A DNA stretch of 64,000 nucleotides from Minisyncoccia bacterium (GTDB lineage Bacteria > Patescibacteriota > Minisyncoccia > Phycocordibacterales > UBA9973), in contig JBBRWS010000002.1 in the NCBI GenBank assembly GCA_038249055.1, forward strand, positions 78,118 to 142,117, given 5' to 3'. Below are positions 4,598-56,509 of the stretch, piece after piece; the first letter of the stretch is position 1, and every line of letters begins with the position of its first letter. Below the pieces are notes generated by a model. That model saw only the letters and a program-made list of their open reading frames with translations. It searched no databases and was not told the DNA's origin. Both the position numbers and the translations under genes were made by a program.

Positions 4598-5101
4598 TTA
4601 AGAAATTTCTATTTCAGTCTCAGGTGTAATTTTGTTTACGAGTTTTAACATATCTTCTTTTTTGACAGCCAAACATCCTTTGGTATATTCCATATTTTTC
4701 TTTGCGATATGTATAAATATAGCACTTCCTTTTTCTTTTATAACTGGTGAGTCATTGTATCCGAGAACAATAATAATGTCGTACATTTCATCCTCTCTCC
4801 ATAAATTTTCATAACTTCCAGCAAAAGGTAATTTAATAAAAGTATTATATTCTTTTTTTGTTGGGTCATCACACCAAGCATCATTTTCAGATAAGGGGAT
4901 ACATTTTATTGTTGTTTCTAAATCAGAGATACGGTCTTTTCTATAATATATTTTTCTTATAGGGAAAGTTCCTTTTGGTGTTTTCCAATCTCCCTCCATT
5001 TTTTCAGTAGTTACCCCGTCTCTTCCGAATACACAAAAAAAAGAGACATCATCCGTAGATAATAATCTCTTTTCGTATTCAGCTTGTAACTTGTTTTCCA
5101 T
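4598..5101 (-). CDS. L,D-transpeptidase (YkuD/ErfK family) catalytic-domain protein
   Basis: 167 aa with the L,D-TPase active-site arrangement …GSAIFIHIA…TKGCLAV (His…Ser/Thr-x-Gly-Cys). Confidence 0.7.
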   Translation of the reverse strand: MENKLQAEYEKRLLSTDDVSFFCVFGRDGVTTEKMEGDWKTPKGTFPIRKIYYRKDRISDLETTIKCIPLSENDAWCDDPTKKEYNTFIKLPFAGSYENLWREDEMYDIIIVLGYNDSPVIKEKGSAIFIHIAKKNMEYTKGCLAVKKEDMLKLVNKITPETEIEIS

Positions 5102-5105
5102 AATA

Positions 5106-5600
5106 TTATTCTACTTTATCAAAAGCAGAATGCCAATATAGTTCCAGTACAGGAGCTTTCTTTTTACTTCCGTCCTTATCAAGTCCGGAGTAGTGTAAAG
5201 GGTGTTCACCTGGCATACCTAAAGAACTTCGATTTGAGATTGCTTGGCTTTCACCAACATAAACACCTAAATGTTTATGGTCTGCTCCATTCTGATGAAC
5301 AGAGCCCCAAACTACAACGCAACCCTTTTTGAGGTTATTTATTTTGTACCATCCAGATTTTTGCATAGCGTACAATGTTCCGGGGACTGTAAAATGTGCT
5401 CTATCAATTAATCCATGTAAAAGAAGAATAGATGAAATAAAATAAGCACAAGATAAATCCCCATCTTTTAGTACGTCATTACCTTCTTTATCAAGGTAAC
5501 TTCTAAAAAGTTGAGATCCAGTAGCATTTCGGATACTCAAAAGAAAATTTTCTTTTTTCATCTTGCGTTTTTTTGTTTTAAATTTCTCAAAATTTACCAT
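5106..5600 (-). CDS. Putative CHAP/NlpC-P60-like cysteine peptidase (cell-wall hydrolase-like)
   Basis: 164 aa. Conserved Cys (GDLSCAYFISS) followed about 60 residues later by His in a beta-strand context (ADHKHLGVYVGE), as in papain-like amidases. Co-oriented with the L,D-transpeptidase, 4 nt apart. Confidence 0.45.
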   Translation of the reverse strand: MVNFEKFKTKKRKMKKENFLLSIRNATGSQLFRSYLDKEGNDVLKDGDLSCAYFISSILLLHGLIDRAHFTVPGTLYAMQKSGWYKINNLKKGCVVVWGSVHQNGADHKHLGVYVGESQAISNRSSLGMPGEHPLHYSGLDKDGSKKKAPVLELYWHSAFDKVE

Positions 5601-5681
5601 TTTTAGGGTATTATGTCAAAATGATACATAAGTGTTATTATGTTGTTAACTTAAATATTTTTTAAGGTTAAAAATAAAAAG

Positions 5682-5754
5682 GCCGATGTAGCTCAGTTGG
5701 TAGAGCAGTCCCTTCGTAAGGGAAAGGTCGTCAGTTCGATTCTGACCCTCGGCT
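5682..5754 (+). tRNA. tRNA-Thr (anticodon CGT)
   Basis: GCCGATG/TA/GCTC-AGTTGGTA-GAGC/A/GTCCC-TTCGTAA-GGGAA/AGGT/GTCAG-TTCGATT-CTGAC/CCTCGGC+T. One acceptor mismatch (T6:C67) and a G27:A43 mismatch. Confidence 0.7.
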
Positions 5755-5887
5755 CTGGTTGGGTAAAATAGAAAAGTTCATTCGTAAGAAAATAGATTAA
5801 CTTAGTTAGCAAAACATTGGAAGTATCCGATTCCGACCTTTGGCTAAGTTTTTAATAAAAGGAAGCTAATGATTTTAAAATTAACAT

Positions 5888-6934
5888 ATGAATAAAAATA
5901 AAAGCACAAGCAATAATAATAAAGTTTTTAAAGGAGAAAATGCAATAAAAGATTTTTTGACACCAGGAGCATTGGGAATGACACCTATTGTTGAGCTTCC
6001 TCCTTCTCTAAATAAATTTTCTAAAGATGGTGTCAGAATATTTGTAAAGTTAATGCAATTTGTTCCTCTTGGAAATATAAAATCAATGCCATCATGGGAA
6101 ATGCTTTCCGGTATTGATAAAAATACTCTTAAAAATACAAAACATTTAGTTGAGTATTCATCAGGTAATACTGTTTTATCTCTTGCAATTCTTTCTCGTC
6201 ATTTTGGAATTCCAAATTTACACGCAATTATTACTCCTGATGTTCCAGAGCATAAAAAACGCTTACTTAAATTAGTTGGGGCAGATTTACTCATATCTCA
6301 TGGACCAAGAAGTCCCGATGTTCATAGTAAAATGGGGGGAGTTTATGAGGCTAAAAAACTTGGAGAAAAAAAGGGATGGCATAATCTAAATCAGTATATA
6401 AATCCTGGTAATGCGGGTGCATCAGAGGAATATGTAGCCAAAGAACTATGGAATCAACTAGGAGATAGTCTAACTATTTTTGCTTCAACTATTGGAACCG
6501 CTGGAACTATATATGGAACAGGAACTTATTTAAAATCAAAAAATAAAAATATTTATGTAGCCGGTTCTTCAATTAAAAAAGGTTCATCTATTCCTGGCCC
6601 TCGTGTAGATGAGGCTATACTTAAGCTCGGTATTCCTTGGTATGACATTGTAGATAAGGTTATTCCTATTGATGCAGTTTCTGCGTATGAAAGAAGCCTA
6701 GCACTTATCAGGCTTGGATTATTTGTTGGACCTTCAACAGGGATGCAATTAGCTATGATAGAAAAAATGTTAAAAGAAATGAAGAAAAATAAAACCCTTT
6801 CTCAATACAGAAATAAAAATAAAGAAGTTGTTATTGCTTTTGTGGCTTGTGATATGATGCATCCATACATAGACGATTATTTTTCTATTTTACCTAAAAA
6901 ATATTTCAAACCTGAACATAATTTAAATAAATAA
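5888..6934 (+). CDS. PLP-dependent enzyme of the cysteine synthase / Trp-synthase-beta (fold type II) family
   Basis: 348 aa. Lys in NIKSMPSW (PLP Schiff-base context), SGNTV glycine-rich loop, …RLLKLVGADLLISHG… matching CysK/CysM layout. Confidence 0.6.
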   Translation: MNKNKSTSNNNKVFKGENAIKDFLTPGALGMTPIVELPPSLNKFSKDGVRIFVKLMQFVPLGNIKSMPSWEMLSGIDKNTLKNTKHLVEYSSGNTVLSLAILSRHFGIPNLHAIITPDVPEHKKRLLKLVGADLLISHGPRSPDVHSKMGGVYEAKKLGEKKGWHNLNQYINPGNAGASEEYVAKELWNQLGDSLTIFASTIGTAGTIYGTGTYLKSKNKNIYVAGSSIKKGSSIPGPRVDEAILKLGIPWYDIVDKVIPIDAVSAYERSLALIRLGLFVGPSTGMQLAMIEKMLKEMKKNKTLSQYRNKNKEVVIAFVACDMMHPYIDDYFSILPKKYFKPEHNLNK

Positions 6935-6953: not shown

Positions 6954-7838
6954 ATGGAAAATAATGAAGAATTAAAAAAAGAAATAGAAGTTCTTGAAGA
7001 ACAAATGGTTCAGGGAAATTTCTGGGAAGACAAAGTAAATGCCCAAGCTGTTATTAAACGTATAGCTTTTTTAAAAGATGAAATTTTAGGTAATCAAAAA
7101 TATGATAAGGGTAATTGTATTCTCTCTGTTCTTTCCGGGGCAGGAGGGGATGATGCAGAAGATTTTTCTGCAATGCTTGTTCGTATGTATACAAAATATT
7201 TTGAGAATAAAGGTTGGTATTGGAATGTAATTCATGAAAATAAAAATGATCTGGGTGGATATAGAAATATTTCTATTGAAGTTATAGGGAGTAGGGCATA
7301 TGGAACACTTAAAAATGAATCAGGGGTGCACAGACTTGTTAGAACTTCACCATTTAATTCTAAGGGTCTTCGTCATACTTCATTTTCTCTTGTTGAAGTA
7401 ATTCCAGAATTTGAAAAAAATAGTAATGTTATAGAAATAAGACCAGAAGAATTAAGAGTTGAACTTTCAAAGTCTGGAGGACCTGGAGGGCAAAATGTAA
7501 ATAAAAGAGAAACTGCAGTAAGAGTAGTTCACTTACCTACAAATCTTTCAGTCCATGTTACTTCTGAGCGTTCCCAAGAGCAAAATAAAGAAAAAGCACT
7601 TGAAATGCTTAAAGGTAAGCTTTTTAAAAAAATGGAAGAGGATCGAAAAAGAGAAAAGGACGGATTATCTATTTCAAAGATTACTGATATTGAATGGGGA
7701 AGCCAAATACGTTCGTATGTTCTTCATCCTTACAAAATGGTCAAAGATCATAGGACTGGAATAGAGATTAATAATGTTGACTCTGTCCTTTTAGATGGTG
7801 AGATAGATAAGTTTATTGAAGCGGAATCGAATTTGTGA
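6954..7838 (+). CDS. prfB: Peptide chain release factor 2 (N-terminally short form, no frameshift site)
   Basis: SPF tripeptide (VRTSPFNSKG), GGQ loop (SGGPGGQNVNKRETAVR), conserved EWGSQIRSY. 294 aa. Lacks the N-terminal ~45 aa that carry the CUU UGA C +1 frameshift in most RF2. Only 19 nt of intergenic sequence upstream. Confidence 0.85.
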   Translation: MENNEELKKEIEVLEEQMVQGNFWEDKVNAQAVIKRIAFLKDEILGNQKYDKGNCILSVLSGAGGDDAEDFSAMLVRMYTKYFENKGWYWNVIHENKNDLGGYRNISIEVIGSRAYGTLKNESGVHRLVRTSPFNSKGLRHTSFSLVEVIPEFEKNSNVIEIRPEELRVELSKSGGPGGQNVNKRETAVRVVHLPTNLSVHVTSERSQEQNKEKALEMLKGKLFKKMEEDRKREKDGLSISKITDIEWGSQIRSYVLHPYKMVKDHRTGIEINNVDSVLLDGEIDKFIEAESNL

Positions 7839-11308: not shown

Positions 11309-12034
11309 TTATTGTAATGAATCGCTACCTGTGCGAATTTTACTATTTTTAATTATTTCTAAAATTTCGTCTTCATTGTCTTTAATTATAAATAGATTAG
11401 AATCTTCTTCGTCTATGGTTTTATATTTTTCTAATAAAACTTCTCGTATGACTTTTATTAAAGGATTCCAAAATTCAGAACCAAAAAGTATAACAGGAAT
11501 TTTCCCAGTTTTTCCAGTTTGTAAATGAGTTAGTAATTCAAAAAGCTCATCTAGTGTACCAAATCCACCTGGGCAAAAAATACAAACTTCTGTTGCATAA
11601 GACATTGAAGCCTGACGAGCAAAGAAAAATTCAAAAGGTATTTCTTCTTTAACATATGGGTTAGTAGATTGTTCATGGGGAAGTCTAATAGTGAGACCAA
11701 GTGATCTTCCCCCTGCTTCGAATGCTCCACGATTTGCAGCTTCCATAGCTCCACCACCTCCACCGGTAATAATTGCGTAGTCTAATTCTTTAGATATTCT
11801 ATAAGCAAGACTCTGGACCATTTTGTATGGTTGGCCATCCTCTTTTAATCTAGTTGAACCATAAAAAGTGACGGAAGGATTACAATTTTTAATACCATCT
11901 ATTCCATTTCTAAACTCTTCCTTTATCATGCATAATTTGGTTTCCTCTTCATTGTTTCCAGTTACAACTATGCAGCCATTTTTTATTTCATCGATTGTTA
12001 GATGTCCGTGTTTTTTTATTGGTTCAGTATTCAT
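11309..12034 (-). CDS. LOG family protein (cytokinin riboside 5'-monophosphate phosphoribohydrolase / 'lysine decarboxylase-like', TIGR00730-type)
   Basis: ITGGGGGAMEAANRGA… and PGGFGTLDELFELLT motifs. Confidence 0.75.
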   Translation of the reverse strand: MNTEPIKKHGHLTIDEIKNGCIVVTGNNEEETKLCMIKEEFRNGIDGIKNCNPSVTFYGSTRLKEDGQPYKMVQSLAYRISKELDYAIITGGGGGAMEAANRGAFEAGGRSLGLTIRLPHEQSTNPYVKEEIPFEFFFARQASMSYATEVCIFCPGGFGTLDELFELLTHLQTGKTGKIPVILFGSEFWNPLIKVIREVLLEKYKTIDEEDSNLFIIKDNEDEILEIIKNSKIRTGSDSLQ

Positions 12035-12145
12035 AAATCTAATTTTACTCCAATATTGTTATATTTTCAATTGTTTTTTGGCTGTTTTATGGTACTATGT
12101 TGAAGTTATCGATGCATTACATAATTAAATCGATTAAATAATTAT

Positions 12146-12216
12146 TGCGGGATCGTCTAATGGTAGGACTACAGTTTCTGGAACTGTGTATCTAGGTTCG
12201 AATCCTAGTCCCGCAG
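12146..12216 (+). tRNA. tRNA-Gln (anticodon CTG)
   Basis: TGCGGGA/TC/GTCT-AATGGTA-GGAC/T/ACAGT-TTCTGGA-ACTGT/GTAT/CTAGG-TTCGAAT-CCTAG/TCCCGCA+G. U1:A72 pair typical of bacterial tRNA-Gln. Confidence 0.8.
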
Positions 12217-12273
12217 CAAAAAAATAAAAGCGTAGCGTTTTTTGCTGCGGGACGAAAGCAAACTACTTTGCTT

Positions 12274-12456
12274 GCGTCTACGATTAGTAAATCGAACCGT
12301 GAGGAGGATTCGAAGACCTTTTCCGTGTGAGTGCGTCCACGAACGGAAAAGGTGTACAGAACCAGCGAATGAGTACATTCGCCTACTGGGTAGGGTTCGA
12401 AAAGTGCGAATGAGTACATTCGCCTACTGGGTACTCACGGTCCTAGTCCCGCAGCA
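12274..12456 (+). repeat. Structured repeat X (copy 1) ending in a direct copy of the tRNA-Gln 3' end (TCCTAGTCCCGCAGCA at 12441-12456)
   Basis: About 99% identical to 13369-13510 apart from an internal 42-nt duplication (GCGAATGAGTACATTCGCCTACTGGGTA occurs twice). Contains hairpins CCTTTTCCGT…ACGGAAAAGG and GCGAATG-AGTA-CATTCGC. Confidence 0.7.
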
Positions 12457-12505
12457 AATTTGACATAAAAGCAATTATATTGTTTATATATGCTATGATA
12501 TAGAT

Positions 12506-13216
12506 ATGAATAAAAATAAACTTGTTATAGCATTTTTTGTGTTAGTTATTGTTTTGGGATTCGGGGTGTACTACTTTTCTTCTAAGGATAAAACCATTCC
12601 ACCAGGCGAGGATATAAATTCTCCTTTGGTTTCTTCTGTGGTTTATAAAAATAATGATTACGGATTTAACTTTTCTTTACCTGCTAATTGGCAAGGATAT
12701 TCAATTGTGAGTAATACATGGGAAGGGATGTCTTTAACTACTTCCACGATAGTCGAAACTGGGCCAAAACTTCTAATACGGGATCCAAAATGGACAGTAA
12801 CTTCACCTCATGAAGATCTACCAATATTGGTTTTTACAATTCAGCAATGGAATTCATATCTAGCAGAGAATTTCTCCATTGGTGCCGCACCAATTAAAGC
12901 AAGTGAATTAGCACGTAATAATACTTACGTCTTCGCTCTTCCAACACGTTGGGATTTTGATTATAGTCTAGGCTTCAAAGAAGCACAGGATATTATTGCA
13001 GGAAATCCTATCCGTACATTCGATTTAGTAATAGTCGATAAACCACAAGGTAAGTTAAATATAAACGTCATATGTGAGCAGGCAATATCATACATGAAAT
13101 TTACAGATGCAAAAAGCGCAGATTTGTTTATTGCTGACTGTAAAGAAGGAAAACACCCCGAAGTAATAGAAAAATATAAAGCAGATATGAATCTTGGTGA
13201 TGGTGTTGCAATTTAA
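12506..13216 (+). CDS. Hypothetical secreted/membrane-anchored protein (N-terminal signal/TM)
   Basis: 236 aa with hydrophobic N-terminus (LVIAFFVLVIVLGFGVYYF). No recognisable catalytic motif. Confidence 0.5.
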   Translation: MNKNKLVIAFFVLVIVLGFGVYYFSSKDKTIPPGEDINSPLVSSVVYKNNDYGFNFSLPANWQGYSIVSNTWEGMSLTTSTIVETGPKLLIRDPKWTVTSPHEDLPILVFTIQQWNSYLAENFSIGAAPIKASELARNNTYVFALPTRWDFDYSLGFKEAQDIIAGNPIRTFDLVIVDKPQGKLNINVICEQAISYMKFTDAKSADLFIADCKEGKHPEVIEKYKADMNLGDGVAI

Positions 13217-18344: not shown

Positions 18345-18956
18345 ATGAAAATATTACTTGCTACAAATAATAAAGGAAAGGTAGAAAGATTTAAAAAATT
18401 AATAAATTACATAGATTCAAATATTGAATTATTTTCACCCAATGAGTTAGGAATTAATCCTATTGATACAGAAGAAAATGGTAAAACTCTTATGGAGAAT
18501 GCTCTATTAAAAGCTAATGCATATTTTGGTAAAATTGATATTCCAATTTTGTCTAATGATACAGGATTTTATGTTGAAGGGGATGGATTTATTGATGCCC
18601 CTAAAAGAATAGCATTGGAAGGCAAAAATGAAAATGAATTATCAGAAGAAGAAATATCTAAGAGACTACTAAATTTTTGGAAAGCAATTGCAACGAAGCA
18701 TGGAGGGAAAGTTGATGCTATTTGGATAGAGGCTTGGGTTGTTTTATATCCCAATGGAGAAATCAAGAAGGTTGAATCCAGAAGAGAAATAATTTTAACT
18801 GACCAAGAATTTGGAGTACCTCATATTCATATGCCAATTAGGGCTTTATATTATTCTAAGATAACAAATAAGCCTGCAATTTTACATACAGAAGAAGATG
18901 AAATCATAGAAATGTCACCTATTTTGAAAGCTTTGCAAGAAGTTTTAGGACTTTAA
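18345..18956 (+). CDS. Ham1/RdgB-like non-canonical purine NTP pyrophosphatase (divergent C-terminus)
   Basis: N-terminal ILLATNNKGKVERFKKL and …LSNDTGFYVEG resemble the RdgB/ITPase core. C-terminal third diverges. Confidence 0.5.
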   Translation: MKILLATNNKGKVERFKKLINYIDSNIELFSPNELGINPIDTEENGKTLMENALLKANAYFGKIDIPILSNDTGFYVEGDGFIDAPKRIALEGKNENELSEEEISKRLLNFWKAIATKHGGKVDAIWIEAWVVLYPNGEIKKVESRREIILTDQEFGVPHIHMPIRALYYSKITNKPAILHTEEDEIIEMSPILKALQEVLGL

Positions 18957-44360: not shown

Positions 44361-44690
44361 ATGGTAGATCTTAAAGAATTACAAAAAGAGGTGATGAGAA
44401 ATAAGATAGAGAAAGGATTCAATACTACAGATGTAGCATTAGAATTTTGTCGAGCCCATGAAGAGCTTTCAGAAGCATTCTCTAAGTTTAATAAAAACCA
44501 AGAAGGAGTTGCTGAAGAATTTGCAGATGTTGCAATCTTTTTACTTGGAATGTGTGAAATTCTAGGTTATGATTTAGAAAAAGAATTAGTTGAAAAAATA
44601 GAGAAAAATAAAAATCGTAAATATATAAAATCAAAATCACCTGATGGTAAAGAAATACACATAAGAGTTAAAACAGATATAGATCCATAA
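44361..44690 (+). CDS. MazG-like all-alpha NTP pyrophosphohydrolase (small single-domain form)
   Basis: …EEFADVAIFLLGMCEILGYDLEKELVEKIEKNKNR… (EExxD…L…G.DL) MazG catalytic helix pair. Confidence 0.6.
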   Translation: MVDLKELQKEVMRNKIEKGFNTTDVALEFCRAHEELSEAFSKFNKNQEGVAEEFADVAIFLLGMCEILGYDLEKELVEKIEKNKNRKYIKSKSPDGKEIHIRVKTDIDP

Positions 44691-44703
44691 TAAAAAATCC
44701 GCT

Positions 44704-45210
44704 TTAAGCGGATTTTTTATTATATATTACAAAGTTACAATCATATTTATTTTTGTCATCTTTTTCATGTTTATCTTCAGACGATTTATTCCACTTAGTC
44801 ATATCAATAATAGGGAAGAAAGTATCGGCGTCTTGAAATGAGGCATTAACATGGGTTATGTATAATCTATCTGCTTTATCAATAAATAATTTATATATTT
44901 GTCCTCCCCCTATTATAAAAGCTTCCTCAGTTTCTCCCATTGTTTCCTTTAATAAAGTATCGAGTTCTTCTAGCGAATAAACGACTTCAATATTTTCTCC
45001 AATAAAATTTTTATCTAAAGTAAGTATTATATTTCTTCTGTTGGGAAGAGGACGACCAATAGACTCAAAAGTTTTCTGCCCCATTATCACTGGATGTCCT
45101 GTGGTTGTTTCTTTAAAGTGTTTCATATCTATGGGTAAATCCCATAGTAATTCATTCTTCCTTCCTATTTCATTATTATTTGCTACTGCTGAAATTATAG
45201 ATAAAATCAT
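44704..45210 (-). CDS. folA: Dihydrofolate reductase
   Basis: MILSIISAVANNNEIGRKNELLWDLPIDMKHFKETTTGHPVIMGQKTFESIGRPLPNRRNIILT aligns residue-for-residue with the DHFR N-terminal half. Confidence 0.85.
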   Translation of the reverse strand: MILSIISAVANNNEIGRKNELLWDLPIDMKHFKETTTGHPVIMGQKTFESIGRPLPNRRNIILTLDKNFIGENIEVVYSLEELDTLLKETMGETEEAFIIGGGQIYKLFIDKADRLYITHVNASFQDADTFFPIIDMTKWNKSSEDKHEKDDKNKYDCNFVIYNKKSA

Positions 45211-45213
45211 TTT

Positions 45214-46062
45214 TTATTTTACTATATCAAGTCCTGGTATAGCTTCACTAGGTTTATAAAATGGGGCAAAAGATTGATATATTTCATCTACTATTGTTTC
45301 ATCTTTTGCAAATGAACGGTCGTATATATTTTCTGGTAAGATAGGAAATATATTTGGATGATCGTTTTCTCTTTTTATTAATTCCTGCGCTCCTTCATAA
45401 TGAATATCATAAATATGAGCATTAGAAATACTGTGGGTATATATTCCTGGCTTTACCCCTAGTTTTTGAGCAAGAGCACACATAAGAAGACTAAAACCAA
45501 ATGTATCAAATGGACAACCTAGCATCATGTCATTTGAGCGTATTATGTTATGAAAATGAAGTCGTCCACCAATTATATTTACAGTGAAAGCAAATGGGCA
45601 AGGTACATTTTTTTTATAAGTTGCCTTTAATCCCGTTCCATATAATCCATCGTCTGATGGATCCCAGGTTACTACAACACCTTGTCTTGAATGAGGCTCC
45701 TCAGTAAGATGTTTAACCAATTGATCAAGCTGGTCTCTTCCGAAGTGGTGTCTCCATCTATATCCATAAGCAGAAGTTATTGTCCCATCTTCTTCAGCAA
45801 ACTCATCCCAAATTTTTGTATATTTTCTTAAAAAGTCTGCATTCTTTTCTCCAGTAACAAACCATACTTGTTCAGCAATGGGAGATTTAATTGGATTCTT
45901 ACGTAAAGTTAAAACTGGAAATCCATCTTTTTCAACATCAATTTGGAAAGTAAGACCTGGTAATATTTTTATCTTATGTCCTGTTCTTTCATTCAATTCT
46001 TCTATCCCTTCTTCCATTATTCTTTTTATTAAATTTTTATAGATTGCGTCAAATGTTGTCAT
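45214..46062 (-). CDS. thyA: Thymidylate synthase (ThyA family)
   Basis: …DRTGHKI…FPVLTLRK… N-terminus. Active-site VPCPFAF (catalytic Cys). IRSNDMMLGCPFD region (R-S-x-D). 4 nt upstream of folA on the same strand. Confidence 0.8.
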   Translation of the reverse strand: MTTFDAIYKNLIKRIMEEGIEELNERTGHKIKILPGLTFQIDVEKDGFPVLTLRKNPIKSPIAEQVWFVTGEKNADFLRKYTKIWDEFAEEDGTITSAYGYRWRHHFGRDQLDQLVKHLTEEPHSRQGVVVTWDPSDDGLYGTGLKATYKKNVPCPFAFTVNIIGGRLHFHNIIRSNDMMLGCPFDTFGFSLLMCALAQKLGVKPGIYTHSISNAHIYDIHYEGAQELIKRENDHPNIFPILPENIYDRSFAKDETIVDEIYQSFAPFYKPSEAIPGLDIVK

Positions 46063-46091
46063 AATGTATAGTATACAAAAATATAAACATT

Positions 46092-46595
46092 ATGGAAACA
46101 GACAAAAAACAAACAATTATTTACCCGTATTTACCAGAAGGATATAAAATTCACTATGTTCCTGAAAGTAATCAATACATTCAAGCTGCAAAAAAATTTG
46201 CGAAAGAACATTCTTTAGATAAGATGGTCCCTACTGGAGCTGTGGCTGTAAAAGATAATAAAATTATAGGGTATGGAGCTAATGGTAGTGATTATCATAA
46301 AACTCACGAATGTGAGAGAGTAAAGAATCATATACCTACTGGTCAGGGCTATGAATTATGTGAAGGATGTCATCCTAAAAATCATGCTGAGAGCAGAGCA
46401 GTCCAAAATGCCATAGACAACGGTTTTAATCCTAAAGGTTCAGATTTGTATCTTTGGGGACACCATTGGTGCTGTGAACCATGTTGGAATACCATGATCA
46501 ATCATGACATAAAAGATGTTTATTTAATGGAAGGAAGCGATATTCTTTTTGATAGAACAAAGGATGGGAATATCATCGGACATCAATTCGAATAA
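46092..46595 (+). CDS. dCMP deaminase-like cytidine/deoxycytidylate deaminase
   Basis: Zinc motifs HAESRAVQNA (H-A-E) and CCEPCWNTM (PCxxC). Confidence 0.75.
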   Translation: METDKKQTIIYPYLPEGYKIHYVPESNQYIQAAKKFAKEHSLDKMVPTGAVAVKDNKIIGYGANGSDYHKTHECERVKNHIPTGQGYELCEGCHPKNHAESRAVQNAIDNGFNPKGSDLYLWGHHWCCEPCWNTMINHDIKDVYLMEGSDILFDRTKDGNIIGHQFE

Positions 46596-46683
46596 TAAAA
46601 AGCGAGCTCGTAAGGCTCGCTTTTTTGTTTATATTTATTGTGTTAAAATTGGTCTATTATAAATTTAATTTATCCACCATGTT

Positions 46684-47859
46684 ATGAAAGATAAACAAAT
46701 AGAAAAACTTATAAAAGAGGAGGAGAAGAGACAAAAGAGCGTTGTGAATTTAATAGCTTCTGAGAACATTGTTTCTGATGATGTTCTGAAAGCTTTAGGT
46801 TCAAAGCTTACAAACAAATACGCCGAAGGTTATCCAGGAAAGAGATATTATGGTGGAAATCAAGTGATAGATAAAGTAGAACTGCTTTGTATGGCACGTG
46901 CTTTAAAACTTTTTAAATTAAAACCCGAAAATTGGCACGTGAATGTTCAGCTTCTTTCCGGAAGTCCTGCTAACTTTGCTTTGTATTCAGCTCTTGTTCC
47001 AATTGGTGGAAAAATAATGGGGATGAAACTTACTGCTGGTGGTCATCTTACTCATGGACATCCTCTTTCCATGACCGGTAAACTCTGGAAGCCTTTACAG
47101 TTTGAACTTGATAAAGAGACAGAGGTTATAGATTATGAAGTATTAAAAAAAATAGCAGTAGAAGAAAAACCAGACATTATTGTTTGTGGATTTACAGCAT
47201 ATCCACGAGTTGTAGATTTTAAAAAATTTAGAGAAATTGCAGATCTATGCGGAGCATTACTTCATGTAGATATGTCTCACTTTGCTGGACTTGTTGCAGG
47301 AGGTGCTTATCCATCACCATTTCCATATGCAGATTCAGTAATGACTACTACCCATAAATCTCTCCGTGGTCCAAGACAGGCAATTCTTTTTGTAAAAAAA
47401 GATGAGCGTGGTTTTGATAAAAAATTGGACAAGATGGTAATACCAGGACTTTTTGGTGGTCCACATGAAAATAATATAGCAGCTGTCGCTGTATGTTTAG
47501 CAGAAGCTATGAAGCCTGATTTTAAAAAATATGCAAAACAAGTAATTAAAAATGCAAAAGTTTTAGCAAAAGAATTACAAAAATTAGGTTGGCATATAAT
47601 TTCAGGAGGTACAGATTCTCATTTGATATTGATGGATACATGGATGGAAGGGAAAGGTATTTCTGGTAAAGACGCCGGTATCTTACTTGAAAAAGCTGGA
47701 ATTATTGTAAATATGAATACAATTCCAGGTGATACAAGAAGTGTTATGGATCCGTCCGGAATTCGTCTTGGTACTTGTGCCGAAACTACAAGGGGAAGAA
47801 AAGAATCTGATATGGTTAAATTAGCCACAAAGATGGATAAAGTATTAAGAGGAAAATAA
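46684..47859 (+). CDS. glyA: Serine hydroxymethyltransferase
   Basis: …LIASENIVSDDVLKALGSKLTNKYAEGYPGKRYYGG… and PLP-lysine region TTTHKSLRGPR. Confidence 0.9.
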   Translation: MKDKQIEKLIKEEEKRQKSVVNLIASENIVSDDVLKALGSKLTNKYAEGYPGKRYYGGNQVIDKVELLCMARALKLFKLKPENWHVNVQLLSGSPANFALYSALVPIGGKIMGMKLTAGGHLTHGHPLSMTGKLWKPLQFELDKETEVIDYEVLKKIAVEEKPDIIVCGFTAYPRVVDFKKFREIADLCGALLHVDMSHFAGLVAGGAYPSPFPYADSVMTTTHKSLRGPRQAILFVKKDERGFDKKLDKMVIPGLFGGPHENNIAAVAVCLAEAMKPDFKKYAKQVIKNAKVLAKELQKLGWHIISGGTDSHLILMDTWMEGKGISGKDAGILLEKAGIIVNMNTIPGDTRSVMDPSGIRLGTCAETTRGRKESDMVKLATKMDKVLRGK

Positions 47860-47860
47860 T

Positions 47861-48187
47861 ATGGAAAAATTAGATTTAAAACAATTAACAGAATTAATTT
47901 TGAAACAAGCAGAAGTTAAAGGTTTTGGTACAAAACCAGAAGATATTAATGTTGGAGAAAAAATTGCACTTATTCATTCAGAAGTATCTGAGGCATTTGA
48001 AGCCTATAGGCATAAAAATATTGACGGTAAAGATGGATTTAAAGAAGAACTGGGGGATGTGATACAAAGAGTTTTACATCTAAGTGGAATTTTCGGTATT
48101 GATATTGAAGCTGAAGTTTTAAAGAAAATTAATTCCAATAAAGATAGAAATTGGAATTTCGACAAAATGAACGAACAACATAGTTAA
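47861..48187 (+). CDS. MazG-like all-alpha NTP pyrophosphohydrolase (second copy)
   Basis: …IHSEVSEAFEAYRHKN…EELGDVIQRVLHLSGIFGIDIEAEVLKKI…. Start overlaps the glyA stop (TAATATG). Confidence 0.6.
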   Translation: MEKLDLKQLTELILKQAEVKGFGTKPEDINVGEKIALIHSEVSEAFEAYRHKNIDGKDGFKEELGDVIQRVLHLSGIFGIDIEAEVLKKINSNKDRNWNFDKMNEQHS

Positions 48188-48278
48188 GTTTGTTTTTAAA
48201 GAAAAAATCTCTGTTTCAACAGAGATTTTTTCTTATTTGGAGGTAAGTATTTTTTTGAGTATAATAAAAAGTATAATT

Positions 48279-48854
48279 ATGAAAAAAGAAAAAATAGTTA
48301 ATAAGCCAACGGTTGAATGGTTTGACGAGATAACGAAAAATTGTCTTGATATCATTGAATTGAAAAAGAAAGAGTATGGGTCAAGTGTTTGCAAATATAG
48401 ACCTTCCTCTATTACAGATAGAATACTCACTAAACTATCTCGCATTAGATCTATTCAGGAAAAGGGTAAAGCCCGTGTAAATGAAAGTGTGGAAGAAACT
48501 TTGTCGCATACTATTAATTATGTTTTATTTAGACTATGGAGACAGGAGGAAAAAAAGAAAGTAAGAGAAATTAATATATTAAAAATAAGTAAGATTATTA
48601 AAGAGTCCAAGGATATCCTTGAAAGTAAAAATCATGATTATGGTGAAGCATGGAAAAAGATGCGCATATCTTCTATTGTTGATGAAGCTTTGGTGAAAAC
48701 TTATCGCATAGTAGAAATGGAAAAAATGTTAAAGAAAAATTCAAAGCTTATAGTAAAGTTAAATCCTAAAATTCTTGACTCTTTGTTTGATATTACAAAT
48801 TATCTTATTTTTGCAATTATTCATATTAAAGAGGGGAAAGACCCTATGCAGTAG
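48279..48854 (+). CDS. Two-repeat all-alpha protein of unknown function (tandem K-x2-[ED]YG-x-x-W…SSIxDxLxK…RI modules; possibly DUF1599-like, uncertain)
   Basis: Internal duplication: KKEYGSSVCKYRPSSITDRILTKLSRIRS… versus KNHDYGEAWKKMRISSIVDEALVKTYRIVEME…. Embedded between MazG and dut in the thymidylate cluster. Confidence 0.4.
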   Translation: MKKEKIVNKPTVEWFDEITKNCLDIIELKKKEYGSSVCKYRPSSITDRILTKLSRIRSIQEKGKARVNESVEETLSHTINYVLFRLWRQEEKKKVREINILKISKIIKESKDILESKNHDYGEAWKKMRISSIVDEALVKTYRIVEMEKMLKKNSKLIVKLNPKILDSLFDITNYLIFAIIHIKEGKDPMQ

Positions 48855-48863
48855 TTTAGGCGT

Positions 48864-49286
48864 ATGAAAATTAAAATTAAAAAATTAAAAGAGGGGATAA
48901 AAATACCAAAATACGCTCATCCTGGAGACGTAGGAATGGATTTATATTCTATGGAAACAGTGATAATAAGGCCTGGCGAACAATATCGTTTTTACCATGG
49001 GTTTGCAGTAGAATTTCCTGTTGGTTATGCTGGTATTATTATGGATAAATCTAGTATTTCAAAAGCGGGGCTTACTAAAATGGGAGGAGTATTTGATGCT
49101 GGGTATCGAGGTGAATACAATACCCATCTTGTAAATCTTGGGAGTGAACCATATACTGTGGAAGAGGGAGATAAAGTTTCTCAACTTGTTATAGTTCCAA
49201 TAGTAATTGTAGAAATAGAAGAAGCGGATATATTAAGTGAATCCTCTCGTGGTATGGGAGCTTTTGGCTCAACTGGTAAAAATTAA
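48864..49286 (+). CDS. dut: dUTP diphosphatase
   Basis: …KIPKYAHPGDVGMDLYS… motif 1, GIIMDKSS, RGMGAFGSTG C-terminal motif 5. Confidence 0.85.
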   Translation: MKIKIKKLKEGIKIPKYAHPGDVGMDLYSMETVIIRPGEQYRFYHGFAVEFPVGYAGIIMDKSSISKAGLTKMGGVFDAGYRGEYNTHLVNLGSEPYTVEEGDKVSQLVIVPIVIVEIEEADILSESSRGMGAFGSTGKN

Positions 49287-51893: not shown

Positions 51894-52095
51894 TTTAAAT
51901 TAATAGTTTAGGTACTTCATTAAATATTAAAATTTTTCAAGTCCTCGGATGAGGGAGGACGAGGGGCCAGACCATTCAAAATTTTATATTTAATTACGTA
52001 CCGATTTAACCAGTAGTTGATTCAATTAATGATTCTGATGAATTGTTTATTGAATAAGATTTTTTATAAATAATTTGTTAAGTTTAATAAAATAT

Positions 52096-55000
52096 ATGGA
52101 CGAAAAAAACCCAAAAACTAATAGTGCACTTAGAGAAGAAGAAGTTTTAAAATTTTGGAAAGAGAATGAAATTTTTAAAAAGAGTTTAGAAAAAGATTCT
52201 CCTAAGGGTGAATATGTTTTTTATGAAGGGCCACCTACTGCAAATGGGAAACCAGGAATCCATCATTTAGAAGCTCGTGCTTTTAAGGATGCTATCCCTC
52301 GATATAAAACAATGAAAGGATATCATGTTGGAAGAAAAGGTGGGTGGGATACTCACGGTCTTCCTGTGGAACTTCAGGTAGAAAAAAAATTAGGTCTATC
52401 TTCAAAAAAAGCTATTGAAGAATATGGGGTTGCTAAATTTAATAAAGAATGTAAAGAAAGTGTGTGGGAATATACTGATCTATGGGAAAAATTTACCGAG
52501 AGAATTGGTTTTTGGGTTGATCAAGAAAATCCATACGTTACATATCATAATGATTACATTGAATCAGTTTGGAATGTTATTAAAGAAGCAAATAAACAAG
52601 ATTTACTTTATAAGGATTATAAAGTTGTACCTTGGTGTCCTAGGTGTGGAACAGGTCTTTCTTCTCACGAGCTTGCTCAAGGGTATGTTGATGTAAAAGA
52701 TTTATCAATATATGCAAAGTTTAAAATCAAAGGGAAAGAAAATACTTATATTCTTGCCTGGACCACAACTCCATGGACTCTTCCAGGAAATGTAGCCTTG
52801 GCTGTCGGTGAGAAAATAATGTATGTAAAAGTGAAAGCGGGGGAAGATTTTTATATTTTAGCTGAATCTCGATATCCATTTGTATCCCAGGAGTATCAAA
52901 TTGTTGAGAAAATAAAAGGTGAAGATTTAATTGGTTTGCAATATGAACCACTTTATCCTTATCTTGAAAATATAATTTCTGATTCTGAAAAACCTAAACT
53001 AGAAAAAGCTTATAAGATTTATAATGCAGATTTTGTGACAACTGAAGATGGAACAGGAGTGGTGCACACAGCTGTAATGTACGGGCAAGATGATTTTGAA
53101 TTAGGAAATAAAATTGGTTTACCAAAACATCATTTGGTAGGTCTTGATGGAAAGTTCTTAGCGGGGACGGGATTTTTAGAAGGACGATTTGTTAGAGACG
53201 AAGAAGTGGCTGTAGATATTATAAAGGATTTGGCTCATAGAGGTTTTCTCTTTAAAAAAGAAAAATATGAACACTCCTATCCACATTGTTGGCGTTGTAA
53301 AACAGCACTTATATATTATGCTCGGGATTCTTGGTACATAAGGATGTCTTCACTTAGGGATAAACTTATTAAAGAAAATGAAAATATAAATTGGGAACCT
53401 TCTCATATAAAAGAAGGACGTTTTGGTGAATGGTTAAAAGATATTAAAGATTGGGCAATTTCTAGAGAAAGATATTGGGGAACTCCACTTCCTGTTTGGT
53501 CCTGTTTGGAATGTAAAAAAATGGAGGTACTTGGAAGTATTGAAGATATTAAATCTAAAACCAAAAAATCTGGAAATAAATACTTTATAATGAGACACGG
53601 GGAAACTGAATGTAATATAAGAGGGGAAGTAAGTGATACTGTAAATAATGATGATAAATTAACTAAACTTGGCCGTGAGCAAGTTTTAAACTCTGTAAAA
53701 GGATTAAAGAAAAAAAATATTGACCTAATAATCATTTCTCCTTTTGTGAGAACAAAAGAAACTGTCGATATCTTAGCTTTAGAGATGGATTTTAACAAAG
53801 ACAATATTTTATTTGATGATAGATTGCATGAAATGTCTGTACCTATGTATGAAGGTAAAAAATGGGAAGATTATCATAATGATTATCCAAAATCAGTAGA
53901 AAACTTTTATAAAGCACCAGAAGGAAATGAATCATATGAAGATGTGAGAAGAAGGTCCATGAGTTTTTTATATGATATTGAAAAAAAATATTCAGGAAAA
54001 AATATTTTGATTATTACTCATGGAAGTCCTGTTTGGTTAATGTTTTCTGAGGTTAATGGTTTAAGTACTTCCGAATCTCTAGGGATAATAGCCAGAGATA
54101 ATAGTTATTGCTATTTAAATAATGGAGAATTTATAGAGCTTCCTTTTGTACCAGTACCTCATGATGAAAATTATAAGGTTGATTTACACAAACCATATAT
54201 TGATGAAATAAATCTAACTTGTGAATGTGGAGGAGAATTATCTAGAGCAAAGGAAGTAATGGATGTCTGGCTTGATTCTGGCTCAATGCCTTTTGCACAG
54301 AGTCATTATCCTTTTGAAAAAAAGGAAATACAATATCCCGCCGATTTTATAAGTGAAGCTGTCGATCAAACCCGTGGTTGGTTTTACACACTTCATGCAG
54401 TCGGAGTTATTATGGGAAGGGGAAATGCATATAAAAATGTAATTTGTCTTGGTTTATTACTTGATGCAAACGGGAAAAAGATGTCAAAATCTGTGGGAAA
54501 TGTTGTAGATCCATGGGCTATGATGGATAAATATGGAGTAGATACAATTAGACTTTGGATGTATTCAGTGAATCAACCAGGGGAGCCAAAAAACTTTGAT
54601 GAAAAAATTATTTCTGAATTACATAACAAAGTTTTTAATTTGCTGTATAACGTTTTAGCTTTTTACGAATTATATAGAGATGAAAAAGTAGAAAATAGAA
54701 AGGAAAAAGTAGAAAGTCAGAATGTTCTTGATCAATGGATTCTAACTCGTCTTGATGAACTTATAATCATAACTACAATAAATCTAGATGATTATAAGCT
54801 TCTTGAACCTGTTCGTGCCATTCGTGAATTTATAGACGATCTTTCTACTTGGTATTTACGACGCTCTCGTGAAAGAATAAAAGAAGGAGATGTTGAAGCA
54901 AAAATTACCTTATATAATGTTTTTAAAATCCTATCTAAATTAATGGCACCTTTTGCTCCATTTACGGCTGAAGATATTTGGCAAAAATTAAGAAATGAAG

Positions 55001-55548
55001 ACGATGAAGAGAGTGTACATTTATCAGGATGGCCTAAAAATGAAGAAAGTAAAAAAGAGGAAATAGAAAAAATTATTAAAGAAATGAGAGAGGTTAGAGA
55101 TGTCGTAACTCTTGGTTTGCAGGCAAGACAAAAAGTTGGTATTCCAGTACGACAACCACTTGGTGAATTACGAATTACAAACTATGATTTAAAAGAAGAA
55201 TATTTAGAAATTATTAAAGATGAGCTAAATGTTAAGATGGTAAAGTTTTTAGAAGATGTTGAACAAAAAATAGAATTGGATACATATATAACAGAGGATT
55301 TAAAAAATGAAGGTCAGTGTCGTGAACTATTAAGAAGTATTCAAGATATAAGAAAGAAAAATGGATTAAATCCAAATGATGTTATAATTCTTAGTATTGA
55401 TACGAATGTGTCTGGACAAGAATTAATAAATAAATTTAAAAAGGAAATAATGAAAGCAGTTAGTGCAAAAGAAATACAAATTGAAGAAAATAATGGAATA
55501 GAGATAAAAATTGATGAATTTGTATTTAAGGTTGTAGTAGAAAAATAA
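52096..55548 (+). CDS. ileS: Isoleucine--tRNA ligase with an inserted histidine-phosphatase (PGAM/SixA-like) domain
   Basis: HIGH-type motif PPTANGKPGIHHLE, editing-domain TTPWTLPGN, WAISRERYWGTPLPVW, KMSKS. Between WGTPLPVW and DVWLDSGS (about 60 aa in E. coli IleS) sits a roughly 200-aa insert carrying FIMRHGETECN and ILIITHGSPVWLM (approx. nt 53560-54150). Start at ATG 52096 (the track TTG at 52075). Confidence 0.9.
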   Translation: MDEKNPKTNSALREEEVLKFWKENEIFKKSLEKDSPKGEYVFYEGPPTANGKPGIHHLEARAFKDAIPRYKTMKGYHVGRKGGWDTHGLPVELQVEKKLGLSSKKAIEEYGVAKFNKECKESVWEYTDLWEKFTERIGFWVDQENPYVTYHNDYIESVWNVIKEANKQDLLYKDYKVVPWCPRCGTGLSSHELAQGYVDVKDLSIYAKFKIKGKENTYILAWTTTPWTLPGNVALAVGEKIMYVKVKAGEDFYILAESRYPFVSQEYQIVEKIKGEDLIGLQYEPLYPYLENIISDSEKPKLEKAYKIYNADFVTTEDGTGVVHTAVMYGQDDFELGNKIGLPKHHLVGLDGKFLAGTGFLEGRFVRDEEVAVDIIKDLAHRGFLFKKEKYEHSYPHCWRCKTALIYYARDSWYIRMSSLRDKLIKENENINWEPSHIKEGRFGEWLKDIKDWAISRERYWGTPLPVWSCLECKKMEVLGSIEDIKSKTKKSGNKYFIMRHGETECNIRGEVSDTVNNDDKLTKLGREQVLNSVKGLKKKNIDLIIISPFVRTKETVDILALEMDFNKDNILFDDRLHEMSVPMYEGKKWEDYHNDYPKSVENFYKAPEGNESYEDVRRRSMSFLYDIEKKYSGKNILIITHGSPVWLMFSEVNGLSTSESLGIIARDNSYCYLNNGEFIELPFVPVPHDENYKVDLHKPYIDEINLTCECGGELSRAKEVMDVWLDSGSMPFAQSHYPFEKKEIQYPADFISEAVDQTRGWFYTLHAVGVIMGRGNAYKNVICLGLLLDANGKKMSKSVGNVVDPWAMMDKYGVDTIRLWMYSVNQPGEPKNFDEKIISELHNKVFNLLYNVLAFYELYRDEKVENRKEKVESQNVLDQWILTRLDELIIITTINLDDYKLLEPVRAIREFIDDLSTWYLRRSRERIKEGDVEAKITLYNVFKILSKLMAPFAPFTAEDIWQKLRNEDDEESVHLSGWPKNEESKKEEIEKIIKEMREVRDVVTLGLQARQKVGIPVRQPLGELRITNYDLKEEYLEIIKDELNVKMVKFLEDVEQKIELDTYITEDLKNEGQCRELLRSIQDIRKKNGLNPNDVIILSIDTNVSGQELINKFKKEIMKAVSAKEIQIEENNGIEIKIDEFVFKVVVEK

Positions 55549-55579: not shown

Positions 55580-56509
55580 ATGAGCATAAAAGATAAATCA
55601 TATGGTGTAATTCTTGTGCTTCGTAGAAATAAGGACGAAGATAAATTTTTAATATTACACCAAACTGAAGGTCATTGGGGTTTCCCGAAGGGTCATCTTG
55701 AAGTGGGTGAAAACCCTTATGAAGCTGCTCTTCGTGAATTAAAAGAGGAAGCTGGTATCTCTGATATAAAATTAGCAGATTTGCCGAGTTTAATAGAAAA
55801 ATATTCTTTTGAGAAAAATGGGAACCATTATGATAAAGTAGTTGAATATTTTATTGCGTTTACTAAAAATGATGAAGTAACTATTCAAGAATCCGAAATT
55901 CAAAATTATAAATGGGCAACATATGAAGAGGCGCTTGATACTTTAACATTCAATGAAGCAAAGGAATTTCTAAAAATAGCAAAAAAATATATTGACTTGA
56001 AAGGTATTAGTCATGAGTTGGCAGTAATAAATTTAAAAGGTGTTTCGCCTGAGGACTCTGATAAATTACCCATAGTGTACAAAGCTAAGGCAGTTGTAAT
56101 AAATTCGGATAATAAAATTATTTTAATTAATGTTGTTTCAAAAAATAAAATAAGCATTCCAGGTGGTAAAATGGAATATGGAGAAAATATTTATGAAACA
56201 TTAGCTCGTGAGTGCAAAGAAGAAATAGGTTATAATATTTCAATTGCTACATCCTTGGGTTATGCAAAATTATATCGAAAAAAATATATTTCAGTAACGT
56301 TTGTTTTTATTGTTAATACTGTTGGAGAACAGTCAACTCTCTCTTTAATGGAAGATGAAATATTTGAGGGGCATGAAGTTGTGCATAAAGACATAGATGA
56401 GGCATTGGAAGAGATTAATAATTATATTATAGACAATCCAATATCTGCTTTGACTCAAATAGCATTAAAAGAAGCTAAAAAATATATTAATTATGGAACA
56501 ACAAAATAA
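55580..56509 (+). CDS. Tandem (double) NUDIX-domain hydrolase
   Basis: Two Nudix boxes: GFPKGHLEVGENPYEAALRELKEEAGI and PGGKMEYGENIYETLARECKEEIGY. Confidence 0.7.
   Translation: MSIKDKSYGVILVLRRNKDEDKFLILHQTEGHWGFPKGHLEVGENPYEAALRELKEEAGISDIKLADLPSLIEKYSFEKNGNHYDKVVEYFIAFTKNDEVTIQESEIQNYKWATYEEALDTLTFNEAKEFLKIAKKYIDLKGISHELAVINLKGVSPEDSDKLPIVYKAKAVVINSDNKIILINVVSKNKISIPGGKMEYGENIYETLARECKEEIGYNISIATSLGYAKLYRKKYISVTFVFIVNTVGEQSTLSLMEDEIFEGHEVVHKDIDEALEEINNYIIDNPISALTQIALKEAKKYINYGTTK

Follow-up and report, generated by a model that had tools for sequence, protein, structure and literature searches.

We analyzed a 64,000-nucleotide stretch of contig JBBRWS010000002.1 from a Minisyncoccia bacterium (assembly GCA_038249055.1, positions 78,118 to 142,117 of the forward strand), hereafter the window, in which positions 44361 to 49286 hold a cluster of genes for thymidylate supply. 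The ThyA homolog of this cluster, here called TS*, has the active-site signature of the Xp12-type clade with Asp at position 177 (E. coli numbering throughout) and not that of the canonical thymidylate synthases (TS), and it is accompanied by a distinct partner deaminase, here called deamStar. We propose, with moderate confidence, that the two enzymes provide the resident thymidylate supply by the route deoxycytidine monophosphate (dCMP) → 5-methyl-dCMP → thymidine monophosphate (dTMP), in which methylation would come before deamination. Thymidylate synthesis is viewed as universal chemistry in which deoxyuridine monophosphate (dUMP) is methylated by ThyA or ThyX, and antifolate and fluoropyrimidine pharmacology, genome-scale metabolic models and uracil-in-DNA biology all build on this view. 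If the proposed route is true, a whole bacterial branch makes dTMP without a dUMP intermediate; TS* is present in at least 183 species-level genomes, and until now, phages that rewrite their DNA with 5-methylcytosine (5mC) were the only setting in which a route of this type had been observed.

Compared with E. coli ThyA, TS* keeps Cys146, Glu58, Tyr94, Arg21, Arg126, Arg166, Asp169, His207 and Tyr209, and it carries the substitutions Asn177→Asp, His147→Pro, Trp83→Phe and Arg127→Gln. The same substitutions are visible in alignments to solved TS structures. Asn177 is the residue that selects uracil over cytosine in canonical ThyA, and TS* has Asp in its place. This single change turns TS specificity from dUMP to dCMP, and no positions separate phage contigs with modified cytosine from those with unmodified cytosine better than 177 and 147 (PMC8670742). 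A preliminary description of this DNA, made from its letters alone, had noted that the catalytic Cys of the ThyA homolog lies in PCPFAF rather than PCHAFF and had flagged the substrate as in question. The alignment agrees with the former, and the odd active site was worth flagging, since it proved to be the interesting part; the decisive substitution, Asp at the position of E. coli Asn177, had been overlooked.

The profile searches against curated ThyA models gave a mixed picture. TS* scored far under the thresholds of six PRK01827/PRK13821 models (for example, 151.6 versus 327) and of TIGR03283 (81.3 versus 174.55), and it exceeded the cut-off of TIGR03284 (120.2 versus 108.35). A profile search over 1.8 billion representatives was examined for its top 150 matches, 142 of which could be typed at position 177. 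Asp177 was found in 124 of them, mostly with Pro147, Phe83, Asn143 and Gln, His or Arg at position 127, and the other 18 had the canonical Asn177/His147/Trp83/Arg127/Leu143 set. His147, Trp83 and Arg127 are common to all 18 sampled Asn177 sequences, and TS* has none of them. In a neighbor-joining tree, the 18 Asn177 sequences were monophyletic, and the clade from the candidate phyla radiation (CPR) sat among the Asp177 sequences. TS* is 37-38% identical to the Xp12 protein, 27% identical to E. coli ThyA and 31% identical to a canonical ThyA from CPR. Its top phage matches are from the Xanthomonas phage Xp12 group (38% identity, E 3e-50), in which Xp12 protein QNN97214 shows the same 'KNVPCP…RS.D…D' pattern with identical Asp177 and Pro147. 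The Xp12 homolog and five of seven other Asp177 homologs produce 5-methyl-dCMP in vivo (bioRxiv 10.1101/2024.12.05.627091).

A scan with one genome per species gave 183 TS* relatives, and the best 80 of these 183 were analyzed (57-89% identity to TS*); they come from Nomura-, Uhr-, Kaiser-, Doudna-, Jackson- and Falkowbacteria and others. Asp177, Asn143 and Asp169 were each conserved in 80/80 of these genomes and Pro147 in 78/80. Hydroxymethylases are recognized by an acidic residue at position 143 and 5-hydroxy-dCMP synthases by Asp169→Asn (PMC13326640). Position 143 of TS* is Asn, in 'KNVPCP' as in Xp12, in an alignment that depends there on gap placement beside an insertion. TS* thus combines the Xp12-type features, which are Asp177 with a residue other than His at 147, a non-acidic residue at 143 and a retained Asp169, and it lacks both the acidic residue 143 of the T4-type hydroxymethylases and, with Asp169 kept in 80/80 genomes, the hallmark of 5-hydroxy-dCMP synthases of the RB69 gp48 type. 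The T4 dCMP hydroxymethylase gp42 shares with TS* the TS fold, the catalytic Cys, Asp at 177 and the 'RSND' motif, but it is only ~23% identical to TS* and has Asp143 and no need for DHFR, whereas the protein in the window has Asn143 and an operonic DHFR gene. Since DHFR lies directly downstream of TS* in 54/55 and 21/21 loci of the two samples described below, dihydrofolate (DHF) would be formed, which points to reductive methylation and not hydroxymethylation. Taken together, these sequence features place TS* in the Asp177 Xp12-type clade and not among the canonical thymidylate synthases, and they suggest that TS* is probably a dCMP C5-methyltransferase, which would convert dCMP and methylenetetrahydrofolate (CH2-THF) to 5-methyl-dCMP and DHF.

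Three fusions occur within the Asp177 clade. Representative P0142 joins a canonical-type dCMP deaminase to the synthase, P0189 joins an Xp12-like PRA-PH pyrophosphatase to the synthase, and P0148 carries an HNH endonuclease domain at the N-terminus.

The partner, deamStar, is a Patescibacteria-specific subfamily of the dCMP-deaminase fold. Its zinc and catalytic residues (H98-x-E100, C128 and C131) are invariant, and its AlphaFold2 model (mean predicted local distance difference test, pLDDT, 89.6) has dCMP deaminases as the nearest solved folds in Foldseek, at a modest template modeling (TM) score of ~0.47; the top matches were 4P9E, 5C2O, 1VQ2, 7FH4 and 2W4L, and the nearest folds are the enzymes of cyanophage S-TIM5, S. 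mutans, T4, PBCV-1 and human. Sister genomes have a canonical dCMP deaminase to which it is only 26-28% identical, and it scores 27.4 bits against the ComEB equivalog TIGR02571, far under the cut-off of 219.45, so that it does not count as an ortholog of ComEB. The family comprises 959 clusters; of the 120 members listed, all those with a named source are from Patescibacteria. Four distant viral relatives were found on IMG/VR contigs, and none of these four contigs has a TS gene within 6 kb of the relative. We propose that deamStar is a 5-methyl-dC-nucleotide deaminase (5-methyl-dCMP → dTMP), a substrate suggested by its co-variation with TS* and by the phage precedent.

Two kinds of neighborhood bear on deamStar. 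In some of the Patescibacteria loci that are more remote from the window (57-62% TS* identity), its C-terminus continues as a fusion into a Nuc_deoxyrib_tr domain (PF05014, DNPH1/Rcl-like), as at ~11979-12950 of locus L063; L085 has similarly long versions, and L080 has a fragment. Since this domain is a deoxynucleotide-binding module, the fusion hints at a substrate or regulation at the level of deoxynucleoside monophosphates. Two contigs with distant viral relatives have suggestive neighbors (L091, IMGVR_UViG_3300020202_000038, 4985-6327; L089, 4013-6453). In one, the deaminase directly follows a C5-cytosine DNA methyltransferase (PF00145, E 1e-39), and in the other, a phage S-adenosylmethionine synthetase lies 1 kb upstream of the deaminase. 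Both neighborhoods are independent hints that relatives of deamStar are linked to 5-methylcytosine.

The two genes co-vary. From the best 80 of the 183 relatives, we took as our genome sample the 55 loci whose flanks reached 3 kb or more on each side; TS* had deamStar no farther than 6 kb away in 53/55 of them and DHFR no farther than 3 kb away in 54/55. In order to remove the bias of sampling on TS*, a second sample of metagenome loci was found via the small MazG-like gene at the start of the cluster (MazG-like A), which was chosen as a neutral anchor because it is present with both synthase types. Among the 21 anchor loci with TS* (Asp177), deamStar was found in 18, that is, in 18/18 of the uncut loci, with the other 3 cut by contig ends; the canonical dCMP deaminase was found in 0 and DHFR in all 21. 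In contrast, the 29 anchor loci with canonical ThyA (Asn177) had deamStar in 0, the canonical dCMP deaminase in 28 and DHFR in 26.

The two pairs also replace each other in place. The Nomurabacteria locus L097 shares its gene order with the window and differs only in that a canonical deaminase and a canonical ThyA take the place of TS* and deamStar; its other proteins are close to those of the window (SHMT 87% identical, ArgRS 79%, Rce1-like 78%, DHFR 74%, MazG-like A 89% and DUF1599 81%). In L096, another close relative, ThyA and a dCTP deaminase (Dcd) occupy the same slot. A module swap between near-isogenic loci points to functional equivalence, which would be dTMP supply, and the presence of three alternative modules for making a T precursor from C at one chromosomal position argues that the job of TS* and deamStar is thymidylate supply. 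The canonical ThyA-FolA plus ComEB/DCTD route (L097, L099, L007 and the 29 anchor loci) thus uses the same slot, the same neighbors (MazG-like A, DHFR, SHMT, DUF1599, dut and ArgRS) and has the same expected product, dTMP. It differs in that ThyA (Asn177/His147/Trp83/Arg127) is exchanged for TS* and the ComEB-type deaminase for deamStar, with the predicted order of steps inverted. As a separate observation, L007 (5804-8120), L161 and L170 have two canonical ThyA paralogs (316 and 264 amino acids, both Asn177/His147) that flank folA.

In the route that we propose, ThyA and dCMP deaminase would have been replaced as a unit by TS* and deamStar in this lineage. First, dCTP would be hydrolyzed to dCMP, probably by a MazG-like pyrophosphatase. 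Second, TS* would methylate dCMP with CH2-THF to give 5-methyl-dCMP and DHF, as its signature, its clade and the DHFR operon suggest. Third, DHFR and SHMT, whose gene identities are secure, would restore CH2-THF (DHF → tetrahydrofolate (THF) → CH2-THF). Fourth, deamStar would turn the 5-methyl-dC nucleotide into the dT nucleotide, a step for which co-variation and the phage precedent argue. Fifth, dUTPase would only sanitize the dUTP pool. The net result would be an inversion of the classical order of deamination followed by methylation. All substrates and products in this route, including those of the MazG-like proteins and the choice of mono- or triphosphate for deamStar, are predicted from what was observed directly, namely the gene identities, the active-site signature, the Xp12 clade membership, the TS*/deamStar co-variation, the module swap and the DHFR linkage.

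The chemistry has phage precedent in Xp12 and in the mSCD enzymes. In the Xp12 locus (MT664984), the gene order is PRA-PH pyrophosphatase, TS homolog QNN97214, dCMP deaminase and DHFR, so that the Xp12 module resembles the cluster in the window in its TS fold with the same 'KNVPCP', Asp177 and Asp169 and in the adjacent deaminase, DHFR and all-alpha NTP pyrophosphatase. It differs in that Xp12 is a phage that replaces all of its C by 5mC, whereas TS* lies at the thyA position of a cellular chromosome; the deaminase and the MazG-like proteins of the window have no BLASTP similarity to the Xp12 accessory proteins, and SHMT and dUTPase are added in the window. The 5mC-selective deaminases of the mSCD-B5 type are, like deamStar, products of dCMP-deaminase-family genes in cis with an Asp177 TS homolog, and by their logic 5mC nucleotides are deaminated to thymidine nucleotides and a separate ThyA is unneeded (bioRxiv 10.1101/2024.12.05.627091). 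Unlike deamStar, which forms a distinct family seen almost only in Patescibacteria and whose substrate is predicted, the mSCD-B5 type is viral and acts on the triphosphate. We found no description of this pathway as a cellular housekeeping route in the literature searched, which treats the thyA of Patescibacteria as ordinary. What appears to be new is the use of this chemistry as a resident, vertically conserved thymidylate module in a large group of cellular organisms, the distinct partner deaminase family, and the documented in-place swap with ThyA and dCMP deaminase.

If true, the proposal would set right the labels 'thyA' and 'dCMP deaminase', a systematic mis-annotation across thousands of CPR genomes, and it would provide a clean evolutionary case in which a two-enzyme module was displaced in place, probably seeded by phage genes. 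It would also yield candidate nucleotide deaminases with 5mC selectivity as a new family, whose practical interest lies in methylation sequencing, and it would raise the possibility of 5mC-rich cellular genomes.

Several points weigh against the route through 5-methyl-dCMP. The specificity of TS* is predicted from a residue signature and from clade membership at 37-38% identity to Xp12, and two of the seven tested Asp177 homologs gave no 5-methyl-dCMP (bioRxiv 10.1101/2024.12.05.627091). The argument for a 5mC preference of deamStar is purely contextual, and BLASTP detects no similarity between deamStar and the Xp12 deaminase. The Fisher tests of the anchor co-variation (p = 7e-11 and 3e-13) give values that ignore phylogeny. 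In 6/55 of the genome-sampled TS* loci, a canonical dCMP deaminase is also retained, and dut is linked; since both of these enzymes make dUMP, their product would be a dead end if TS* were strictly dCMP-specific. Neither a ThyX motif nor a canonical ThyA was found in the 64-kb window and within 10 kb on either side of the 80 loci, with the rest of these genomes outside this view.

The strongest alternative, which we consider unlikely, is that TS* is an ordinary synthase that methylates dUMP and that deamStar is a divergent dCMP deaminase, which would leave the classical route from dCMP or dUTP through dUMP to dTMP, as currently annotated. All database names read 'thymidylate synthase' or 'deoxycytidylate deaminase', TS* passes TIGR03284 and occupies the exact ThyA slot beside folA, and the linked dut together with the canonical dCMP deaminase of the 6/55 loci would supply dUMP. 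However, Asn177 is changed to Asp in 80/80 genomes with His147, Trp83 and Arg127 changed as well, the switch to dCMP caused by the first of these changes is experimental (PMC8670742), and the clade of TS* includes the experimentally verified dCMP methylase of Xp12. An ordinary synthase also gives no reason for synthase and deaminase to co-vary, whereas the canonical deaminase was found in 0/21 TS* loci versus 28/29 ThyA loci. The Xp12-clade dCMP signature and the co-variation with a special deaminase thus make the dUMP route probably not the one used here.

A second alternative, which we regard as distinctly improbable, is that 5-methyl-dCTP replaces dCTP in the genome as in Xp12, with the MazG-like proteins as dCTPases and with deamStar siphoning part of the methylated nucleotide to thymidine. 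The parts match those of Xp12 (NTP pyrophosphatase, Asp177 TS homolog, deaminase and DHFR), and Asp177 TS homologs are strongly associated with cytosine-modified DNA in metaviromes (PMC8670742; bioRxiv 10.1101/2024.12.05.627091). Yet relatives with 74-89% identical flanking proteins swap the modules, a behavior not easily reconciled with an altered DNA chemistry across the whole genome. Canonical-ThyA genomes have MazG-like A to the same extent, at 80-93% identity, and therefore it is not a dedicated dCTP-exclusion device. In addition, no dedicated 5-methyl-dCMP kinase was seen in the window, and there is no report of 5mC-substituted CPR DNA in the literature searched. No C5 DNA methyltransferase genes are present in the TS* loci, which gives no argument either way. 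The broad form of the idea, in which the Patescibacteria radiation (Nomura-, Uhr-, Kaiser-, Doudna-, Jackson- and Falkowbacteria and others) makes dTMP via 5-methyl-dCMP and also incorporates 5mC that largely or wholly replaces C, is just as doubtful; if such chromosomes did exist, these would be, to our knowledge, the first cellular organisms with a pre-replicatively substituted base.

The remaining alternative, a dCMP hydroxymethylase or another C5 modifier that feeds hypermodification with DUF1599 and MazG proteins as accessories, is very improbable: Asp177 is common to the T4 dCMP hydroxymethylase and DUF1599 is named 'nucleotide modification associated domain', but DHFR is operonic with TS* in essentially all loci although hydroxymethylases make no DHF, position 143 is Asn as in Xp12 and not Asp or Glu, the retained Asp169 excludes a 5-hydroxy-dCMP synthase, no glycosyl-, amino- or carbamoyl-transferase genes lie nearby, and DUF1599 and MazG are found equally with canonical ThyA.

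The route through 5-methyl-dCMP assigns a possible role to the small pyrophosphatases of the cluster. The two MazG-like proteins both match PHROG 3301 'pyrophosphatase' (MazG-like A, E 4.5e-14; MazG-like B, E 6.8e-19) and are paralogs of each other (35% identity, E 2e-14). MazG-like A is 73-93% identical across relatives, where it adjoins TS* and canonical ThyA clusters alike. In the distant Patescibacterium of locus L007, it is 86% identical (window 44361-44690 versus L007 8173-8505), unlike the DHFR, dUTPase, SHMT and ArgRS of that locus, which are 42-49% identical to those of the window; this points to unusually strong constraint or to recent transfer. MazG-like A may act as a dCTP (or 5-methyl-dCTP/dUTP) pyrophosphatase that feeds dCMP to the pathway. 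For MazG-like B, a check of the 80 genome loci and of near relatives gave an ortholog in L011 and L105 only.

MazG-like B lies in the slot between glyA and dut, which in close relatives is a variable nucleotide-pool islet that the window fills with MazG-like B and the DUF1599 gene. In relatives, the slot holds a thymidylate kinase, one or two Nudix hydrolases, a Nuc_deoxyrib_tr/DNPH1-like protein, or nothing, and by eye only, it also holds an ITPase, a rhodanese-like open reading frame (ORF) and a CYTH-like ORF. One passage of the preliminary description had placed two MazG-like genes and a tandem-repeat protein between glyA and dut; one MazG-like gene and the repeat protein are indeed there, and the other MazG-like gene lies beyond folA, as an earlier passage of that description had stated. 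Its guess that the repeat protein belongs to DUF1599/Nmad was right, as the PF07659 profile matches both repeats. Its idea that these genes decorate the thymidylate cycle as a dedicated side pathway did not hold up, since the MazG-like and DUF1599 genes occur with both ThyA and TS* and do not co-vary with synthase type; the description had itself named a lack of such co-variation in close relatives as grounds for giving up the idea, and this is what was observed for the decoration part.

Both repeats of the DUF1599 protein keep the invariant K/N-x-DYG-x-W, R, S-x-x-D, K, R and NY positions, and its AlphaFold2 model is an all-alpha helical bundle (pLDDT 90.2) that matched no PDB structure. The possibility that it is a cryptic MazG or all-alpha NTPase was rejected (hhalign against 44 MazG-like sequences, probability 0.5%). 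The gene is found with TS* (the window, L107 and L125) and with canonical ThyA (L007, L096, L097, L099 and L161), which suggests that it encodes a thymidylate- or folate-associated protein and not a TS*-specific accessory. It adjoins folP, folK and cmk in presumed Bacteroidota loci (taxon inferred from named homologs). In Asgard viruses, DUF1599 likewise lies among thymidylate genes, where it follows dUTPase and ThyX in a block (bioRxiv 10.1101/2021.07.29.453957). On the Xp12 side, QNN97215 (L001 7219-7992), annotated 'HAD hydrolase' and located directly upstream of the dCMP methyltransferase, is the PRA-PH pyrophosphatase. The last 110 residues of this protein bear a weak resemblance to a single DUF1599 repeat (hhalign E 0.014, probability 3%); DUF1599 is the sole Pfam match of this C-terminus, at an E of 0.23 that is below threshold, and BLASTP finds nothing.

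The features of the cluster are listed in Table 1. ORFs, Pfam and NCBIfam bear out the eight genes of the preliminary description at their positions, and the gene identities support its statement that a thymidylate and folate cycle is co-located here. The folA gene begins 3 nt downstream of TS* in the same operon, and argS lies directly 3' of dut. The mechanical ORF of the DUF1599 gene begins earlier than the listed start, at TTG 48237. The strong hairpin after deamStar suggests that deamStar is a transcription unit separate from glyA and the downstream genes.

Table 1. Positions of the thymidylate-supply genes in the window and of the glyA-dut islet in related loci
Feature	Position	Strand	Basis
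MazG-like A	44361-44690	+	PF12643, 30.6 bits vs cut-off 27
DHFR (folA)	44704-45210	-	Pfam DHFR_1, 199 bits
TS* (ThyA homolog)	45214-46062	-	PF00303 Thymidylat_synt, 187 bits
Intergenic spacer between divergent TS* and deamStar	46063-46091	.	29 bp, read from sequence
deamStar (dCMP-deaminase fold)	46092-46595	+	PF00383 dCMP_cyt_deam_1, 50 bits
Terminator-like hairpin	46597-46625	+	12-bp stem then T run, directly 3' of deamStar
SHMT (glyA)	46684-47859	+	Pfam SHMT, 505 bits; NCBIfam NF000586, 497 bits vs cut-off 335
MazG-like B	47861-48187	+	PF03819, 22.3 bits vs cut-off 22 (borderline)
Double DUF1599/Nmad1 protein	48279-48854	+	PF07659, 2 repeats, E 1.3e-31, 109.2 bits vs 25
dUTPase (dut)	48864-49286	+	Pfam dUTPase, 86.8 bits; TIGR00576, 112.5 bits vs cut-off 102.55
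glyA-dut islet, L010	6609-8159		
glyA-dut islet, L011	5264-8169		
glyA-dut islet, L013	2285-3749		
glyA-dut islet, L014	4884-7713		
glyA-dut islet, L019	6603-8202		
glyA-dut islet, L033	5530-8163		

The locus is a conserved chromosomal thymidylate-supply cluster of Patescibacteria of the Nomurabacteria/Paceibacterota type. The closest named homologs of TS* are from Nomurabacteria, Paceibacterota and Minisyncoccia, and the divergent order of TS* and deamStar is kept in most Nomurabacteria/Paceibacterota-type loci. The window has a low G+C content (~30%) and also encodes six tRNAs, GatA, a release factor, FtsEX, PyrG, ArgRS, IleRS, RecO and a sigma factor, and in a Nomurabacteria relative, the cluster is flanked by the str/S10 ribosomal operons and L11-NusG-SecE. 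The preliminary description had found the gene content more typical of large phages; these housekeeping neighbors and the ribosomal-operon context in relatives contradict a phage-like setting, and an origin as phage-derived cargo was rejected on the same grounds.

Other genes of the window were noted in passing. A 309-amino-acid protein with two NUDIX domains (55580-56509, + strand) is a further nucleotide house-cleaning gene, and a Ham1/ITPase-like gene (18345-18956, + strand) matches its family over the first ~78 residues only. The release factor ORF (6954-7838, + strand; 294 amino acids) matches the C-terminal half of PCRF only (profile positions 88-194); 20 nt separate this ORF from the end of the upstream gene, and its N-terminal part seems to be missing, or there is a frameshift or an alternative start. 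The IleRS of the window (52075-55548, + strand; 1157 amino acids) has a His_Phos_1 domain inserted in the middle of its catalytic domain (residues 504-668, 104 bits), and this insertion of the histidine phosphatase superfamily is kept in L096 (11357-14977), L098 (10968-14561) and L099 (11123-14602).

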